A stretch of 63,968 nt of DNA, counting the filler, from Malassezia furfur (Eukaryota), in assembly GCA_052055015.1 (NCBI GenBank). It is 6 parts of 6 records of this genome, joined end to end, with 100 filler letters (N's around TTAATTAATTAA, not from the genome) between each part and the next. Parts side by side here need not be neighbours in the genome. Positions count along the whole stretch, not along the records: positions 44,978 to 56,049 come from JBQJIT010000372.1; 5 more parts are not named here. One strand, given 5' to 3'. The position numbers and the translations under genes are program-made. Positions 11,159 through 56,149 of the stretch are shown here, piece by piece; position 1 is the stretch's first letter; every line of letters begins with the position of its first letter. Under the pieces are notes generated by a model that searched no databases, was not told the origin of the DNA, and was given only the letters and a program-made list of their open reading frames with translations.

Positions 11159-11258
11159 NNNNNNNNNNNNNNNNNNNNNNNNNNNNNNNNNNNNNNNNNN
11201 NNTTAATTAATTAANNNNNNNNNNNNNNNNNNNNNNNNNNNNNNNNNNNNNNNNNNNN
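11159..11258. other. Artificial contig linker (N run, TTAATTAATTAA, N run; 100 nt)
   Basis: The same spacer with six-frame stops recurs at 22409-22508, 33653-33752, 44878-44977 and 56050-56149. Confidence 0.99.
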
Positions 11259-21696: not shown

Positions 21697-22408
21697 ATGG
21701 GGAAAGCGGAGGCCGGCACGCCGTACGTCGCGCACTGACCCAGCAAGGCGATCAGCAATGCCATGAAGGCGCGGGGGCTCACCCGCCTCCGGTGGTACTG
21801 CCAGGTGTGCCAGAAGGCATGCCGCGACGCCAACGGCTACAAAATGCACATCGAGTCGGAGTCGCACGCGCGCCAACTCGCGGCGGTCGCCGGCGAGGGC
21901 GGCCAGCGCGCGGGCAAGGTCGTGCACGACTACAGCGCCCAGTTCCAGCGCGAGTTCGTCCTCCTCCTCAGCCGCCGGTTCGGCACGCGCCGCGTGCTCG
22001 CGAACCAAGTATACCAGGAATACATCCAGGACCGACACCACGTGCATATGAACGCGACGCGGTGGGTGTCGCTTTCCGAATTCGTCAAGTACCTGGGGCG
22101 CGCGGGCATTGCGCGCGTCGAGGACAGCGACCTTGGCTGGTACATCTCGTGGATCGACAACTCGCCGTCGGCGCTTGCGCGGCAGGACGCGCTGCAGAAG
22201 ATGAACCGGCAAAAGGCCGACGACGAGCAGCGCGCGCGCAAGCTGCTCGAGGAGCAGATCCGCCACGCCAAGAAGGACACGCGTGCGGACGAGATCGAGG
22301 AGCTGCGCGAGCAGGGCATCCGGCGGCCGACCGATGCGCCACTCAAGCTGTCGCTGTCTACGGGGAAGAGCGAGGGGGCCGCGGCGCCGAGCGAGGCGCC
22401 TGCGCCCG
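21697..22408 (+). CDS. KIN17: KIN17/Rts2 Zn-finger protein (3' truncated)
   Basis: 21-nt intron 21723-21743 restores MGKAEAGTP|KAISNAMKARGLTRLRWYCQVC; HHVHMNATRW. Confidence 0.95.
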
Positions 22409-22589
22409 NNNNNNNNNNNNNNNNNNNNNNNNNNNNNNNNNNNNNNNNNNNNTTAATTAATTAANNNNNNNNNNNNNNNNNNNNNNNNNNNNNNNNNNNN
22501 NNNNNNNNCGTCGCGCCGCGGCACGGTGTGCTGGCACCGTCACCGCGGCGTGTCTCGGCCGACCCCACGTGGCGTGTCGGACGAGCCGC

Positions 22590-29178: not shown

Positions 29179-29891
29179 ATGGCCGCACCGACGCTCGTAC
29201 CGCTTCCGTTTGCCAATGCGCTTGCGAAGAAGATCGCACTGTGCTGCGGGTACGTAGACTAGACTGACCAAGTGACATCACCAAACGTGCGTAGCGCCAT
29301 GCTGATACAGTGCGCGTGGATGCCATCGTCAATGCTGCCAACAACTCGCTTCTGGGCGGCGGCGGCGGTACGTGCAACGCTCACGCAGTCGACGGCGCCA
29401 TTCACCGCGCAGCGAACGACAAGCGCTTTCTTGAAGAGTGCCGCCAGCATAATGTGCGTCTGTGCCTAACCCAGGGATGTGCGACCGGCGAAGCGAAGCT
29501 GACCAAGGGCTACAACCTGCCTGCAAAGGCCGTCATCCACACGGTCGGCCCTGTTTGTGCGTGACCAGGCATACTCATTCAGACGCGGAGCATTCGCCGA
29601 GCGAGAGCAAGTCCCTGCTCCAGGCCGCCTACCGCAACAGTCTGCAGGTCGCTGCTGACGCGGGACTGCGTTCCGTGGTAGGTTGGCGCATGGCTCACCC
29701 AGGCGTTCCCCTCGATCTCGACCGGCGTGTACGGCTACCCCAAAGCCGCCGCGACCGATGCGGCGCTCGAGCAAGTCAAGGCGTTCCTCGAAGGGCCGAG
29801 CGGCAACAAGGTCGACCAGGTCGTGTTCTGCTGCTTTATGCCAGAGGACATGAAGGGCTACGAAAACGCAGCGCCTAAGTACTTTTCGTAG
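29179..29891 (+). CDS. MacroD/YmdB-type macrodomain ADP-ribosylhydrolase, 7 exons
   Basis: Six introns (29250-72, 29287-310, 29368-88, 29454-74, 29557-82, 29678-702) give [33 protein letters not shown]...VIHTVGPVY...[15 protein letters not shown]. Confidence 0.95.
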
Positions 29892-33652: not shown

Positions 33653-33752
33653 NNNNNNNNNNNNNNNNNNNNNNNNNNNNNNNNNNNNNNNNNNNNTTAA
33701 TTAATTAANNNNNNNNNNNNNNNNNNNNNNNNNNNNNNNNNNNNNNNNNNNN

Positions 33753-36259: not shown

Positions 36260-38253
36260 ATGCCGGCCCCGTGGCCCGCGCGTCCACGGCGCGCCACGGC
36301 CGCCGTGCTAGCCGCATGCGCGCTCGGCACCATAGCGCACGCGCGCCCCCTGATCGAGGCGCCCGCGGCGGCGGCGTCGCTCGTGCCGAGCCGCAGCGCG
36401 GACGCGTCCAGCGTGCCGACGGCGCACTCGTCGTCGCTCGCGCTGTGCTATGACCTGCAGGCGCTGCGCTCGCTCGAGGGGCACACGCCCACGGGCCCCA
36501 ACGCGCTCGTCGACTACGACGGCGTTCTTCACGACTACTACGTGTACATCAGCACATCGATCGCGCTCGCCTTCATCATCATCTTCATCATGATCGTCGC
36601 CGTGTGCCTCCGCGACCACCACGCAGGGAAAAAGAAGCCCGAGGACGACGAGATACCCCTCGCGCACCTCTCGGCTACCTCGCCCGAGCTGCGTAGCAGC
36701 ACGTCGCGCGGCGGAGNNNNNNNNNNCGGGCCCACACCCCGCGGCACCGGTTCCTCCGTGTGCCGCGCCGCATCCCGCTTGCTCTGCGCAAGCGGCGTAC
36801 CACCCACATGCCGGCCGGCAGCCGCTCGTCGTCGAGCGGCGGCGCATCACAGCGTGCTGCGGCTGCCCCGTCGGCACCGCCGTCGTCAGCGCCGTCGCCC
36901 GACGTGACGACACCGACACACGCACCCGCCGCACCCCTCGATACCACGCTTGCTGAACTGGGGCCGCGCTCCGGGACGTCACTCGCTCCGACGCCGCCGC
37001 CCGCCGCCGTGCCGTCGCTCCACCTTCCCCCGCCGGCGCCTGCTGCGCCCGCACCGGCGCACACACCTCGCGACCCGCTCCGTGCGCCGCTCGACCAGAG
37101 CGACGTCGAGGCCGTAAACGCGCTCCCGATCGAGCCCGCGCAGCCCCCGGCGTACATTGCGCCGCCGCCGGACGCGCAGCCAGGCTCGTCGCCCCGCGAC
37201 GACCGCGGCAAGGGCCCTGCCCCGCCGCTCGAAGAGGCCGGCGGCACAGACGAACTGTTTGCGCACCTCGCGACCGACGACAAGGCGGTGCTCACCGCGC
37301 TGCACTCGGCCGCCAGTGCGCCGGCGCCGGCACTCGACACCGACCCCCTACGGCGCGCGCCGCTCGCGCCACCACCGCGCTGGGGCGCCGCGCCCAGTGC
37401 GCCGCCGATCGATGTAGACGACGCCGCGCACCCCGACACCGCACCGCCCATGCCGCTCGGTAAGGGCAAGGCGCGGCACGTGTCGGGCAGTCTGCAACTG
37501 CCGCCCACGCGCCGCACCCCGCAGTTTGCGCGGTTCGATGCGCCGACGTACGAAGCGCCGGCGCCGGCGCCGCACGCTTCGGCCAAGGAGGCCGAGGCTG
37601 AGGCGGAGCGTGCACATCTCGCGGCGCTGCTGCCCTCGGCGCCGACCGAGTGGGGATGGGCCGACGACGTACTTCCTACATACGGCACGGCGCCTTCCGC
37701 ACCGCCGCCCCACGCGGACGAGGGCGCGACACAGTCGGTGCTGGGCACAGAGGATGACGCGCTATGGGGGACCAGAAGGCCCAGCGCGCCAGCAGACGAA
37801 GCGGGACCATCGGAGATGTCGGCGCCGCAGCCGTCGGCGCCCGTGTTGTTCGTGCCTGAGCCGTCGGTGCCTGAGCCTATGGCGCGTGAGCCTGAACCGT
37901 CGGCACCACCGCTGGTCGAGCCCGAACCGTCGGCACCGCCGCTGGCCGAGCCTGGGCTGTCGGCGCCTGCATCCATCCTTGGACCCGTGGTGCCAGAAAT
38001 TGGTTCCGAGCCATCCGCGCCCGAGCTGCTGGAACCTGCACCATCGGCCCCTGCGCTGTCCGGGTCGGAGCCATCCGCCCCCGAGTCCGGGCCGTCAGCC
38101 CCCGCGTCTGGGCCATCGGGCCCCGCGTCTGGGCCATCGGCCTCCCCGCTCTCCGAGCCGGTGACGTCGGCTGCTTCCGACCCTTTGCCATCGACATCCT
38201 CGGCGATCTTGTCACCCTCTACGATCCCGTCACCCTCGGCTCCGTCATTCTGA
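36260..38253 (+). CDS. Unknown single-pass membrane protein with Pro-rich PSAP-repeat tail (frame bridged across the 10-N gap 36717-36726)
   Basis: Signal-like N-terminus, TM ISTSIALAFIIIFIMIVAVCL; after the gap a 497-aa ORF with ~13 PSAP, PPAY and LPTY. Joining the two halves is inferred. Confidence 0.65.
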
Positions 38254-38339: not shown

Positions 38340-38867
38340 TCAACCTGTAATAGCTAGTCTGTATACTACAAGACGTCCAAACCCGTCTGTGCTTCCCTCG
38401 AGCCGCAGCGCGAGATGCGTGCACGCCGCATCCACCGCGTAGGCGGCCACCTGCAGCTGCTGTGCCACATGCTCGGGTTTGAGCGGAAATGTCTGGGCCA
38501 TGTTCCCATCGGCCGGGTACACCGTCTCGAGCTCGACCCACGCGACGTCTTTCGGGTTCGCGGCGCTTGCAAATCCAGCGAGGAGCACGACACGGATCGG
38601 TGCAAACCCGCCCGCAAACGTGCAGTGCACCACCTGCAGCGACGAGACGGCACACGGCGCATCGAGCGTCGCTGTCAACGTGACCTGTGCCGAGGTGCTG
38701 GGCGATCCCTGCGTCAGCACGGCACGTACAAGCTCCACGGTCCAGCACGTCTCACTGTCCTCGCTCAATGCATAACGTGCTTCCTTGGACGAGCCAATTG
38801 ATGCGCTGGGTCAGGCACCCACGTACCGCACACGCGTTGCGCGCTCCAGCACCGAACCAGAAGACAT
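38340..38867 (-). CDS. NR2C2AP: NR2C2AP-like galactose-binding-fold protein
   Basis: 21-nt introns 38806-38826 and 38709-38729; SETCW, FAGGF, VYPADGN, EGSTDGFGRLVVYRL. Confidence 0.75.
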
Positions 38868-44877: not shown

Positions 44878-44977
44878 NNNNNNNNNNNNNNNNNNNNNNN
44901 NNNNNNNNNNNNNNNNNNNNNTTAATTAATTAANNNNNNNNNNNNNNNNNNNNNNNNNNNNNNNNNNNNNNNNNNNN

Positions 44978-45471: not shown

Positions 45472-48400
45472 ATGGCCGAGCCCGAGTACGTCGCGTGGCG
45501 CGCACTAACGCAGCGCGAAGAAGCGCAAGCTGCACACGGACGCGGGGTCGTTCACCGACACGCTCGCGAGCCTCGCGGACACCGCGGATGACCGCGCCTT
45601 GTGTACGTTGGTGCGCCGCTCACGCAGTGGACCCCGAGTCGACGTGGCCGCGCCCGCCGCTCACGCCGCTCCAGCCGGACGAGGACGCGCTCGGTACGTG
45701 CGCCGCACGCGCTGACCCGCAGTGTTCCAGCAGATCGACGTCGAGGAGCACCAGCTGCCGCACGCGCCCCCGGAAATCCGCATGTACGGCACCACGAAGG
45801 AGGGGCACGCGGTGCTCGTGCATGTGCACGGCTTCCTGCCGTACTTTTACGTGAACGCCCCGCGCGGCTTCACGGCGGGCGCGTGTGCGGACCTGAAAAA
45901 CTACCTGAATGTGCGTGCCGCCGCTGACGCAGACCACGTTCGGCACGAACGCCGTCGCGGACGTCGCGCTCGTCAGCCGCAAGAACCTGATGCAGTACAC
46001 GGGCCCCGAGGACATTGCGTTTGTGCGCATCACCGCCGCGGACCTGCGCAGCTTCCCGCGGATACGAGATACGTACTCTGGCAGCGACTGACACCGCAGC
46101 ACGCTCGTTTGAGCGCGGCGAGATTGCGTTCCGCGACCTGTTTGTGCCGGGCGACGCGATGGTGTCGTTCGACAACGTGGTGTACACGCTGCGCTTCATG
46201 ATCGACCACGAGATCGTCGGGATGAACTGGATCGAGCTCAAGCCGGGGCACTACACGGTGCGCTCCGCAAACGCGTCCATCTCGCGGTGCCAGATCGAGG
46301 TGGACTGCAGCCCGGACGCGATCGTGTCGCATGCGCCCACGGGCGAGTGGCTCGCGCTCGCGCCGCTGCGCATCCTGAGCTTCGACATCGAGTGCGCCGG
46401 GCGCAAGGGCATCTTCCCGGACCCCGCGGTGGACCCCGTGATCCAGATCGCCAACATGGTCACGCGGCAGGGCGAGTCGCAGCCGTTCATCAAGAACATC
46501 TTTACGCTCGGGACGTGCTCGCACATCATGGGGTGCCATGTGATGTCGTTCGACAACGAGGCCGACCTGCTCGAGGCGTGGGCCGACTTTGTGCAGCGCG
46601 CGGACCCCGACATGGTGATCGGGTACAACCAGAGCAACTTCGACCTGCCCTACCTGATGGAGCGCGCGCGCGTGCTCAAGGCGAGCGCGTTCCCGTACCT
46701 CGGGCGCGAGCGCAACACACGCACCGAGGTCAAGGACACGCACTTCTCGTCGAAGGCGTACGGCACGCGCGACTCGAAGCACACCGAGATGCAGGGGCGC
46801 CTGCAGCTCGACATGCTGCAGGTGATGCAGCGCGACTACAAGCTGCGCAGCTACTCGCTCAACTCGGTCTCGTTCGAGTTCCTCAAGGAGCAGAAGGAGG
46901 ACGTGCACCACTCGCTCATCACCGAGCTGCAGAACGCCGGGCCCGAGGCGCGCCGCCGCCTCGCGGTGTACTGCCTGAAGGACGCGTATCTGCCGCAGCG
47001 CCTGCTCGACCGGCTGATGTGCTTCATCAACTACACCGAGATGGCGCGTGTGACGGGCGTGCCGTTCAACTACCTGCTCAGCCGCGGGCAGCAGATCAAG
47101 GTGGTCTCGCAGCTCTTCCGCAAGGCGCGCGAGGACGGCTACCTGATCCCCACGTACAAGGGCGACGGCGGCGACGAGCAGTACGAGGGCGCGACCGTGC
47201 TCGAGCCCAAGCAGGGCTACTACGACAAGCCGATCGCGACGCTCGACTTTGCGTCGCTGTACCCGTCGATCATGATGGCGCACAACCTGTGCTACACGAC
47301 GCTGCTCGACAAGCGCACCATCGAGCGCCTGCAGCTCGTCGAGGGGCGCGACTACGTCGTGACGCCCAACAACAACTACTTCGTCACCGCCGGCGTGCGC
47401 AAAGGCCTGCTCCCCACCGTGCTCGAGAACCTGCTCGCGGCGCGCAAAAAGGCCAAGGCGGACCTCAAGAAGGAGACCGACCCGCTCCGCCGCGCCGTGC
47501 TCGACGGCCGGCAGCTCGCGCTCAAGGTGAGCGCCAACTCGGTGTACGGCTTCACGGGCGCGACGGTCGGGCGCCTGCCGTGCCTCGAGATCTCGATGAG
47601 CGTCACCGCGTACGGCCGCCAGATGATCGAGGAGACCAAGTCGCAGGTCGAGCGGCACTACACCGTCGCGAACGGCTACGCGCACGACGCCGTGGTCATC
47701 TACGGCGACACCGACTCGGTCATGGTCAAGTTTGGCGTGAGCGAGCTCGCCGAGGCGATGCGCCTCGGCGCCGAGGCCGCCGAGCGCGTCTCCAAGGTAT
47801 TCACGGACCCGATCCGCCTCGAGTTCGAAAAGGTCTACTTCCCGTACCTGCTGATCAACAAGAAGCGCTACGCGGGCCTCTACTGGACGAACGCGGACCA
47901 CTTTGACAAGATGGACACCAAGGGCATCGAGACGGTGCGCCGCGACAACTGCCGCCTCGTGCGCACCGTCATCGAGACGTGCCTCCGCAAGATGCTCATC
48001 GACCGCGACGTGAGCGGCGCCGAGCGCTACGCAAAGCAGATGATCGCCGACCTGCTCCAGAACAAGGTCGACATGTCGCAGCTCGTCATCTCCAAGGCGC
48101 TTGCCAAGACGGACTACGCCGCGAAGCAGGCACACGTCGAGCTCGCCGAGCGCATGCGCAAGCGGGACGCAGGTTCCGCGCCGGCGCTCGGCGACCGCGT
48201 CGCCTACGTCATCGTCAAGGGCAGCAAGGGCAGCGCCGCGTACGAAAAGTCGGAGGACCCCCTGTACGCGCTCGAGCACAACATCCCCATCGACACGCGC
48301 TACTACCTCGAGAACCAGCTCGCCAAGCCGCTCCTGCGCATCTTCGAGCCGATCCTCGGCGCGCGCGCCAACTCGCTGCTCAACGGCGAGCACACGCGCA

Positions 48401-48744
48401 CGGTCCAGGTCGCCACCTCCAACGTCGGCGCGCTCATGAAGTTTGCCGTCAAGACGGTGCAGTGCCTCGGGTGCCGCACGCCGCTCAAGGACCAGAACGC
48501 GGCCGTGTGCAAGAACTGCAAGCCGCGCGAGACGGAGCTCTACTTTGAGAAGCTCGTGCGCGCCTCCGCGCTCGAAATCGAGTACAGCCGGCTCTGGACG
48601 TGCTGCCAGCGCTGCCAGGGCTCCCTGTCGCAGGACGTGCTGTGCTCCAACCAGGACTGCCCCATCTTCTTCCGGCGCAAGCGCGCCCAAAAGGACGCCG
48701 AGGACGCCGCACGCGTCGTGCAGCGCTTCGATACCGCCTGGTAG
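45472..48744 (+). CDS. POL3: DNA polymerase delta catalytic subunit
   Basis: [34 protein letters not shown], CysA/CysB motifs; introns 45486-513, 45603-27, 45694-722, 45911-32 and non-canonical 46069-46102. Confidence 0.98.
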
Positions 48745-56049: not shown

Positions 56050-56149
56050 NNNNNNNNNNNNNNNNNNNNNNNNNNNNNNNNNNNNNNNNNNNNTTAATTA
56101 ATTAANNNNNNNNNNNNNNNNNNNNNNNNNNNNNNNNNNNNNNNNNNNN

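Follow-up and report, generated by a model that had tools for sequence, protein, structure and literature searches.

Introns that begin with AT, end with AC and are of the U2 type, that is, removed by the major spliceosome, form an established rare class: 15 have been listed for human, six for mouse and three for fly, and some fungal xylanase genes have been 'hypothesized' to hold them (Sheth et al. 2006, PMC1557818). In yeast an engineered AT-AC intron is spliced in vivo (PMC5029451, citing Parker and Siliciano 1993), and RPL30 has an endogenous AT-AC intron that is used at a low level, in ~1–2% of transcripts, and whose 5′ site is not U2-like (Gould et al. 2016, PMC5029451). In the basidiomycete Ganoderma lingzhi the gene chr6g0094801, which encodes a zf-C4pol domain, was broken in earlier gene sets, its AT-AC site being unrecognised, and the AT-AC splice was confirmed by reverse transcription polymerase chain reaction and Sanger sequencing (PMC11590231, BMC Biol 2024). 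This article concerns a predicted intron of the same kind in POL3, the gene for the catalytic subunit of DNA polymerase delta (Pol delta), on a 63,968-nucleotide (nt) stretch of DNA from Malassezia furfur (assembly GCA_052055015.1). The whole stretch is referred to as the window, and all positions are counted along it.

The POL3 coding region extends from 45472 to 48744 on the plus strand, from ATG to TAG, and was modelled with six exons and five introns. The fifth of these, at 46069–46102, is very probably (we put the probability at roughly 0.87) a real AT-AC intron, which would be removed by the major spliceosome and would have been inherited from an ancestor of the Ustilaginomycotina and Agaricomycotina. 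Introns of this kind are known, and the one in G. lingzhi has been published; a literature search for earlier descriptions of such an intron, conserved in the Pol delta genes of Malassezia or basidiomycetes, found only that example. The Malassezia intron, its conservation across Ustilaginomycotina and Agaricomycotina, and the systematic annotation error at this site appear to be new, none of the three having been found in the literature searches.

Results and discussion

The POL3 reading frame is broken at 46068/46103. The original prediction had placed the end of the upstream frame (...PRIR) at a TGA and had described the downstream frame, which encodes FERGE, as shifted. Both statements hold: the TGA lies at 46089–46091, and the downstream sequence belongs to a 917-codon open frame (45991–48744) shifted by +1. 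All 2601 donor/acceptor pairs around the break, with any dinucleotide at either end, were enumerated and the open products were scored against six relatives with an intact junction. The AT-AC pair 46069–46102 ranked first of the 1962 open-frame solutions, with the product PRIR-GS-FERGE, and removal of these 34 nt was the only one to rebuild the conserved junction R-G-x-F-E-R-G-E. Three GT-AG pairs were tested as repairs, of which one gave a stop and two gave the wrong register; joining the GT at 46073 to the AG at 46099 (27 nt) does lead to a stop, as had been claimed. The GC-AG options remove conserved residues or measure just 16–19 nt, and none is plausible. The 31-nt AT-AG splice (46069–46099), which the original prediction also listed, is in frame and ranked 28th of the 1962 solutions.

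Intron 5 lies on the plus strand in phase 1 inside a Gly codon (CGA G ... GC TCG). Its 5′ splice site, ATACGT (46069–46074), had been read as the local GTACGT with the first G replaced by A, followed by a CTGAC branch site, and a survey of the window bears this out. A strict pattern for tiny GT-AG introns matched 19 sites, as against a mean of 5 (standard deviation 2.5, maximum 11) in 50 block shuffles. The matches were mostly 21–30 nt long, one 17-nt match being nested in a 21-nt candidate, and their 5′ hexamers were GTACGT (8), GTGCGT (6), GTAGGT (3), GTATGT (1) and GTGGGT (1). The 5′ site of intron 5 is the commonest of these hexamers except at position +1. The CTGAC motif (46088–46092), found also in the local GT-AG introns, presumably acts as the branch site, with the branch A at 46091, 11 nt before the end of the intron. 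An AG at 46098–46099, 8 nt after the branch A, would be by-passed in favour of the 3′ splice site CAC (46100–46102); use of this AG would give an in-frame product longer by one residue.

The spliced model has a conceptual product of 1044 amino acids. It aligns end to end with M. vespertilionis P0003 (84.7% over 996 amino acids, no gap openings), with P0005, a Malassezia protein whose gene is intron-less in the same part (82.8%, one gap opening), and with Thecaphora P0008 (77.4%, two gap openings), and its C-terminal 879 residues, encoded from 46105, are 99% identical to M. furfur KAI3618406. The best 120 matches all had E = 0 and were all basidiomycete family-B polymerases with PF03104 and PF00136; PF14260 was present in nearly all of them and many were named Pol delta or POL3. 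Full-length similarity and the family-B Pfam domains place the product among the Pol delta catalytic subunits (POL3/POLD1).

The bare motif pattern AT[AG][ACT]GT...CTRAY...NAC is common, with eight matches in the window including intron 5, and intron 5 is set apart by the break in the frame of a single conserved gene, by homology and by conservation. Of the seven other matches, five inside long uninterrupted open reading frames and one enclosing a normal GT-AG intron were taken as chance.

It had been suggested that an AT...AC might be conserved at this position in other basidiomycete POL3 genes, and contigs resembling M. sympodialis, Tremellales and Filobasidiales do have one at the same Gly codon. 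A metagenome scan yielded 80 POL3 loci, of which eight have an AT-AC intron at the position, 71 are contiguous and one starts downstream and is uninformative; none has a GT-AG intron there. The eight include L079, whose intron reads through so that the locus appears contiguous on first scoring. Together with the window there are six distinct DNA sequences with an intron at this codon (window, L006, L009, L010, L013 and L079), and all six are AT...AC, with the 5′ hexamers ATACGT, ATAAGT and ATGAGT (two of each), lengths of 28–82 nt and CAC or TAC at the 3′ end.

The M. sympodialis-like contigs L006 and L007, which have 98.4% identity to M. sympodialis POL3 over 426 amino acids, read AGAG-ATACGT...CTGACCAGACAC-GCTCG at the same codon, with an intron of 28 nt. 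AT-AC ranked first of 1541 open solutions in L006 (2601 pairs tried) and was also first in L009, L010, L013 and L079. In the Tremellales-like contigs L009–L013 (best matches 64–79% to Tremella POL3) the introns are 46–47 nt long and read ATAAGT...GTAC or ATGAGT...GCAC, and in the Filobasidiales-like L079 an 82-nt intron reads ATGAGT...CTAC; each of them interrupts the same Gly codon in phase 1. The intron-less Malassezia contigs (L001–L004 and L008) read CGA GGC GCG TTT GAG, in which the Gly codon is the one rebuilt by AT-AC splicing. The loci among the 80 that look non-basidiomycete are all contiguous at the site.

One of the metagenome loci, L005 (3439 bases), encodes a protein 100% identical to Tilletia maclaganii POL3 over 1074 amino acids and is intron-less and of mRNA-like length. 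This length implies that some of the metagenome loci are probably transcripts, whose contiguity is uninformative on gene structure.

An AG lies 3–4 nt upstream of the used AC in five of the six distinct introns (CAG-CAC, CAG-ACAC, AAG-TAC and TAG-CAC), and there is none in L079. The AG/AC positions are 46098–46102 in the window, 1564–1569 in L006, 2994–2998 in L009 and 910–914 in L013. The AG may be a signal that is recognised ahead of the second step of splicing, or a relic. Its proximity to the AC would make these introns a compact natural substrate for work on how the first intron base governs the choice of 3′ site.

Gene finders were expected to mis-annotate the junction, and the public protein models are in agreement. 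Of 13 named Malassezia models, 12 are wrong or truncated there: residues are skipped, the wrong frame is read through, or the protein starts at the first Met after the intron. Only M. vespertilionis keeps the conserved junction. The proteogenomically curated M. sympodialis model is N-terminally truncated and starts MIDLNIVGMNW, at the first Met after the intron; in the one supplementary file of the M. sympodialis proteogenomics paper that was searched there was no AT-AC or POL3 entry. A match to 'AT-AC' in a dermatophyte genome paper proved to be the polyketide synthase domain string KS-AT-ACP and is irrelevant.

Public basidiomycete Pol delta models of at least 900 amino acids (181 in number) were then classed at the junction. 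Contiguous models number 118, while 34 continue 'R/K-D-', 26 have other defects and three lack the region; a few of the 26, among them P0106, P0116 and P0190, are artefacts of the alignment. Seven of the 34, from Tilletia horrida, Ganoderma sinense, Grifola, Russula, Flammula, Mycena venus and Panaeolus, are complete in-frame read-throughs, with D first and R last, directly before x-F-E-R-G-E. A phase-1 intron in a Gly codon that is read as D...R must begin with AT (or AC) and end with C, since a GT-AG intron would give G...G. The recurrent false form VRDKGEC is the best false GT-AG solution enumerated in L009 and arises when the GT inside the AT-type 5′ site is joined to an exonic AG. At least 34 of the 181 models, and possibly up to 60, are erroneous at this single junction of an essential replication gene, and permitting AT-AC at the POL3 Gly codon would mend faulty Pol delta annotations.

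The validated G. lingzhi intron appears to belong to the same gene. The primers listed in a supplementary table of that paper (PMC11590231) translate to HITDF and EQKED, which are Pol delta motifs. These are at residues 90 and 427 of the window model, flanking the junction residue 165, and their spacing fits the 1026-bp complementary DNA amplicon. We infer that chr6g0094801 is very probably the POL3 orthologue and its AT-AC intron the orthologue of intron 5.

Several observations weigh against the interpretation of 46069–46102 as a conserved U2-type AT-AC intron. The branch A is 11 nt from the 3′ end of intron 5 compared with 5–9 nt in the 19 local GT-AG pattern sites, and an in-frame AG is present at the normal distance of 8 nt. 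L006 has an earlier AC, in a GAC that follows the branch A by 6 nt, but it is out of frame. That this GAC is passed over means that the 3′ end is not simply the first AC; the skipping of GAC for CAC would fit a putative YAC preference analogous to YAG. Contiguity alone does not tell which of the genes behind the 118 contiguous models carry the intron, the G. lingzhi intron is placed only to within the 1026-bp amplicon, and the assignment to the major spliceosome is drawn from lineage and motifs. The in-frame AG, which lies within the local range of branch distances, is also what would favour an AT-AG intron (46069–46099) with the AG used for the main product or for a sizeable isoform, and L009, L010 and L013 likewise have an in-frame AG 3 nt before the AC. 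Such an intron is nevertheless very unlikely. Use of the AG would add a residue and abolish the Gly, which the intron-less relatives and most contiguous models have; in L006 the AG 4 nt upstream of the AC leads to a stop, so that only the AC end works; and L079 has no AG near the end of its intron. In yeast genetics attributed to Parker and Siliciano, an intron with A at position 1 is reportedly blocked at the second step when its terminal base is G and rescued when it is C. The original prediction's preference for AC over AG is upheld by the ranks (1 and 28), by the Gly codon of the intron-less sequences and by the M. sympodialis-like sequence, where the AG is out of frame. A minor isoform with the residues ARS may still be produced, the AG being in frame and at a normal distance.

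A subclass of U12-type introns typically has AT-AC ends (PMC1557818), and removal by the minor spliceosome would be another explanation of the same 34 nt, though a highly improbable one. The intron starts ATACGTAC and not with the U12-type 5′ site /ATATCCTT (ATACGT in place of ATATCC), and the U12-type branch site TCCTTAAC, expected ~10–15 nt from the 3′ end, is absent from it in any similar form; it contains neither CCTTAA nor CCTTGA. Two surveys report the Basidiomycota and Dikarya to be without minor introns or minor small nuclear RNAs (PMC10639083, PMC2846911), in agreement with the earlier statements that the donor is not of the U12 consensus and that these fungi are believed to lack the minor spliceosome. 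In each lineage, moreover, the 5′ hexamer of the AT-AC intron matches the GT-type consensus found there except for the A at +1; in the Tremellomycete-like loci the AT-AC intron starts ATAAGT or ATGAGT and neighbouring introns start GTAAGC or GTAAAC. Because the minor spliceosome is missing from Basidiomycota and the 5′ sites are the local GT consensus with G1 changed to A, intron 5 is most readily assigned to the U2 type (type II) and would be removed by the major spliceosome. The first rank of AT-AC in the window and in five other distinct sequences supports the U2-type AT-AC intron that had been proposed. A last alternative is that there is no real intron, and that the break comes from a sequencing or assembly error or from a strain-specific G-to-A change in a decaying copy, or is bridged by translational frameshifting. 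A single change of A46069 to G would indeed create a perfect 31-nt GTACGT...CAG intron. This explanation is just as improbable as the U12-type one, since the L006 frame would stay broken even if its intron began with G and ended at the AG, and the window POL3 is otherwise intact, with 99% identity to the POL3 annotated in M. furfur. To judge from the related sequences, A46069 is not an assembly slip, because the genomic open reading frames of an independent M. furfur lineage (P0136, seen on five contigs) read through the junction with A at the start of the intron, the M. japonica and M. equina models read PR[VI]RDT at the junction, by which the same A would be present, and L006 and L007 carry the identical ATACGT. 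The M. brasiliensis model, which reads the +1 frame GYEI there, would likewise imply A.

The M. furfur protein WFD49403 (P0122) was rejected as independent proof of A46069, as it is essentially identical to the window model save for a mis-annotated junction. When the upstream exon was used to look for an M. furfur protein derived from a transcript, the single match was a genomic read-through open reading frame.

The mechanism proposed for the major spliceosome would use the organism's normal ultra-short GT-AG signals, namely the 5′ hexamer bar position 1 and the CTGAC branch. From yeast work and spliceosome structures, the first and last intron bases pair, either G with G or A with C, and such pairing would be the reason for AG skipping. 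At the second catalytic step the A at position 1 of intron 5 would pair with C and could not pair with the G that ends the nearby AG, so that the spliceosome would pass the AG at 46098–46099 and ligate at CAC 46100–46102. CGAG would be joined to GCTCG in this way and the Gly codon rebuilt.

The intron would not have arisen by recent mutation but in an ancestor common to the Ustilaginomycotina (Malassezia, probably Tilletia) and the Agaricomycotina (Tremellales, Filobasidiales and many Agaricomycetes). AT-AC may have persisted because an essential gene would have to change at two sites at once to revert to GT-AG; the sole escape seen would be complete loss of the intron. In the 80 loci and the window the site is AT-AC or intron-less and never GT-AG, as a two-mutation trap of this kind predicts. 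An older origin is conceivable but doubtful, in which the intron would be a fossil: an early-fungal U12-type AT-AC intron that the major spliceosome took over when the minor one was lost in Dikarya, and that was then frozen in place because both ends must change together. Support for a U12-type relic was sought in the non-basidiomycete-looking loci of the 80, which have no intron at the site, and in eight supplementary files of Olthof et al. 2019, from which POLD1, POLD, POLA1 and POLE are absent as whole words. If true, the fossil origin would make the intron one of the few remaining traces of the conversion of minor introns in fungi. It would also offer a natural setting in which to study how the major spliceosome passes an AG 3–4 nt upstream to ligate at AC. 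The original prediction's further idea that the intron is a splicing bottleneck for Pol delta is speculation.

Other features of POL3 and of the window

The remaining introns of POL3 are four GT-AG introns within the first 460 bases of the gene, all on the plus strand, the shortest being 22 nt long. Intron 1 (45486–45513, 28 nt, GTACGT...CTAAC...CAG) restores MAEPD-AKKRK as in P0001. Intron 2 (45603–45627, 25 nt, GTACGT...CTCAC...CAG), with ...DDRAL on its upstream side, has the non-consensus branch motif CTCAC in place of CTRAC. Removal of intron 3 (45694–45722, 29 nt, GTACGT...CTGAC...CAG) joins ...PDEDAL to VFQQIDVEE, and that of intron 4 (45911–45932, 22 nt, GTGCGT...CTGAC...CAG) joins ...KNYLN to TTFGTNAV. 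Ultra-short GT-AG introns of 21–30 nt are used in this genome, other examples being at 21723–21743, 29454–29474 and 38709–38729 (the last on the minus strand). Tiny introns are known in the genus, the curated M. sympodialis set having introns of 30 bp on average (PMC5389616, Table 2).

Exactly at 46212/46213 of the window, between GAG and ATC, seven additional residues (VRALLTQ) are present in P0128, a related genomic open reading frame of a different strain or species. The insert looks like the read-through of a 21-nt in-frame intron; if it is one, the window POL3 is without an intron that is present in a close relative.

Elsewhere in the window, at 1682–1701, a 20-nt AT...CTGAC...AC match lies at the end of a 144-codon open frame (1259–1690) and is either chance or a second non-canonical intron. 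An Rfam scan of the window gave no matches. The runs of N at 11159–11258, 22409–22508, 33653–33752, 44878–44977 and 56050–56149, and also at 36717–36726, are evidently not biology. Paired runs of 44 N occur at a spacing of ~11.2 kb, and one pair, ~500 bases upstream of the POL3 start codon, hides part of the upstream region.

Conclusions

Intron 5 of M. furfur POL3 would be a clear example from nature of a U2-type AT-AC intron that has lasted for a very long time in fungi that have no minor spliceosome, and it can be compared with each of the systems described at the outset. It resembles the animal U2-type AT-AC introns, such as those of human SCN4A and SCN5A, in having AT-AC termini with an otherwise ordinary U2-type 5′ site (PMC1557818). 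The borders of the animal introns are conserved over a long range, from human to pufferfish (PMC1557818), as those of intron 5 are across basidiomycetes. Unlike the animal type II introns, intron 5 is found in a lineage that has no minor spliceosome and is just 34 nt long, and whereas the animal 5′ site is a fixed /ATAAGT, the fungal hexamers vary, being ATACGT in Malassezia and ATAAGT or ATGAGT in the Tremellomycetes-like contigs. With U12-type AT-AC introns it shares the terminal AT and AC, but it lacks their 5′ and branch-site motifs, and their machinery is reported absent from the Basidiomycota.

The yeast cases are similar in that a fungal major spliceosome is able to splice AT-AC, with the requirement that the first and last intron bases match. 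In RPL30, however, the AT-AC intron is a low-level one, whereas the AT-AC junction in POL3 would be the sole route to a full-length essential protein. The G. lingzhi intron is alike in lying in a basidiomycete B-family polymerase gene with zf-C4pol that was misread by gene sets. In the account given of that gene (PMC11590231) it is a single-species example, the gene is not named as POL3 and conservation is not mentioned; by the comparison made here, it and intron 5 are very probably two instances of one intron.

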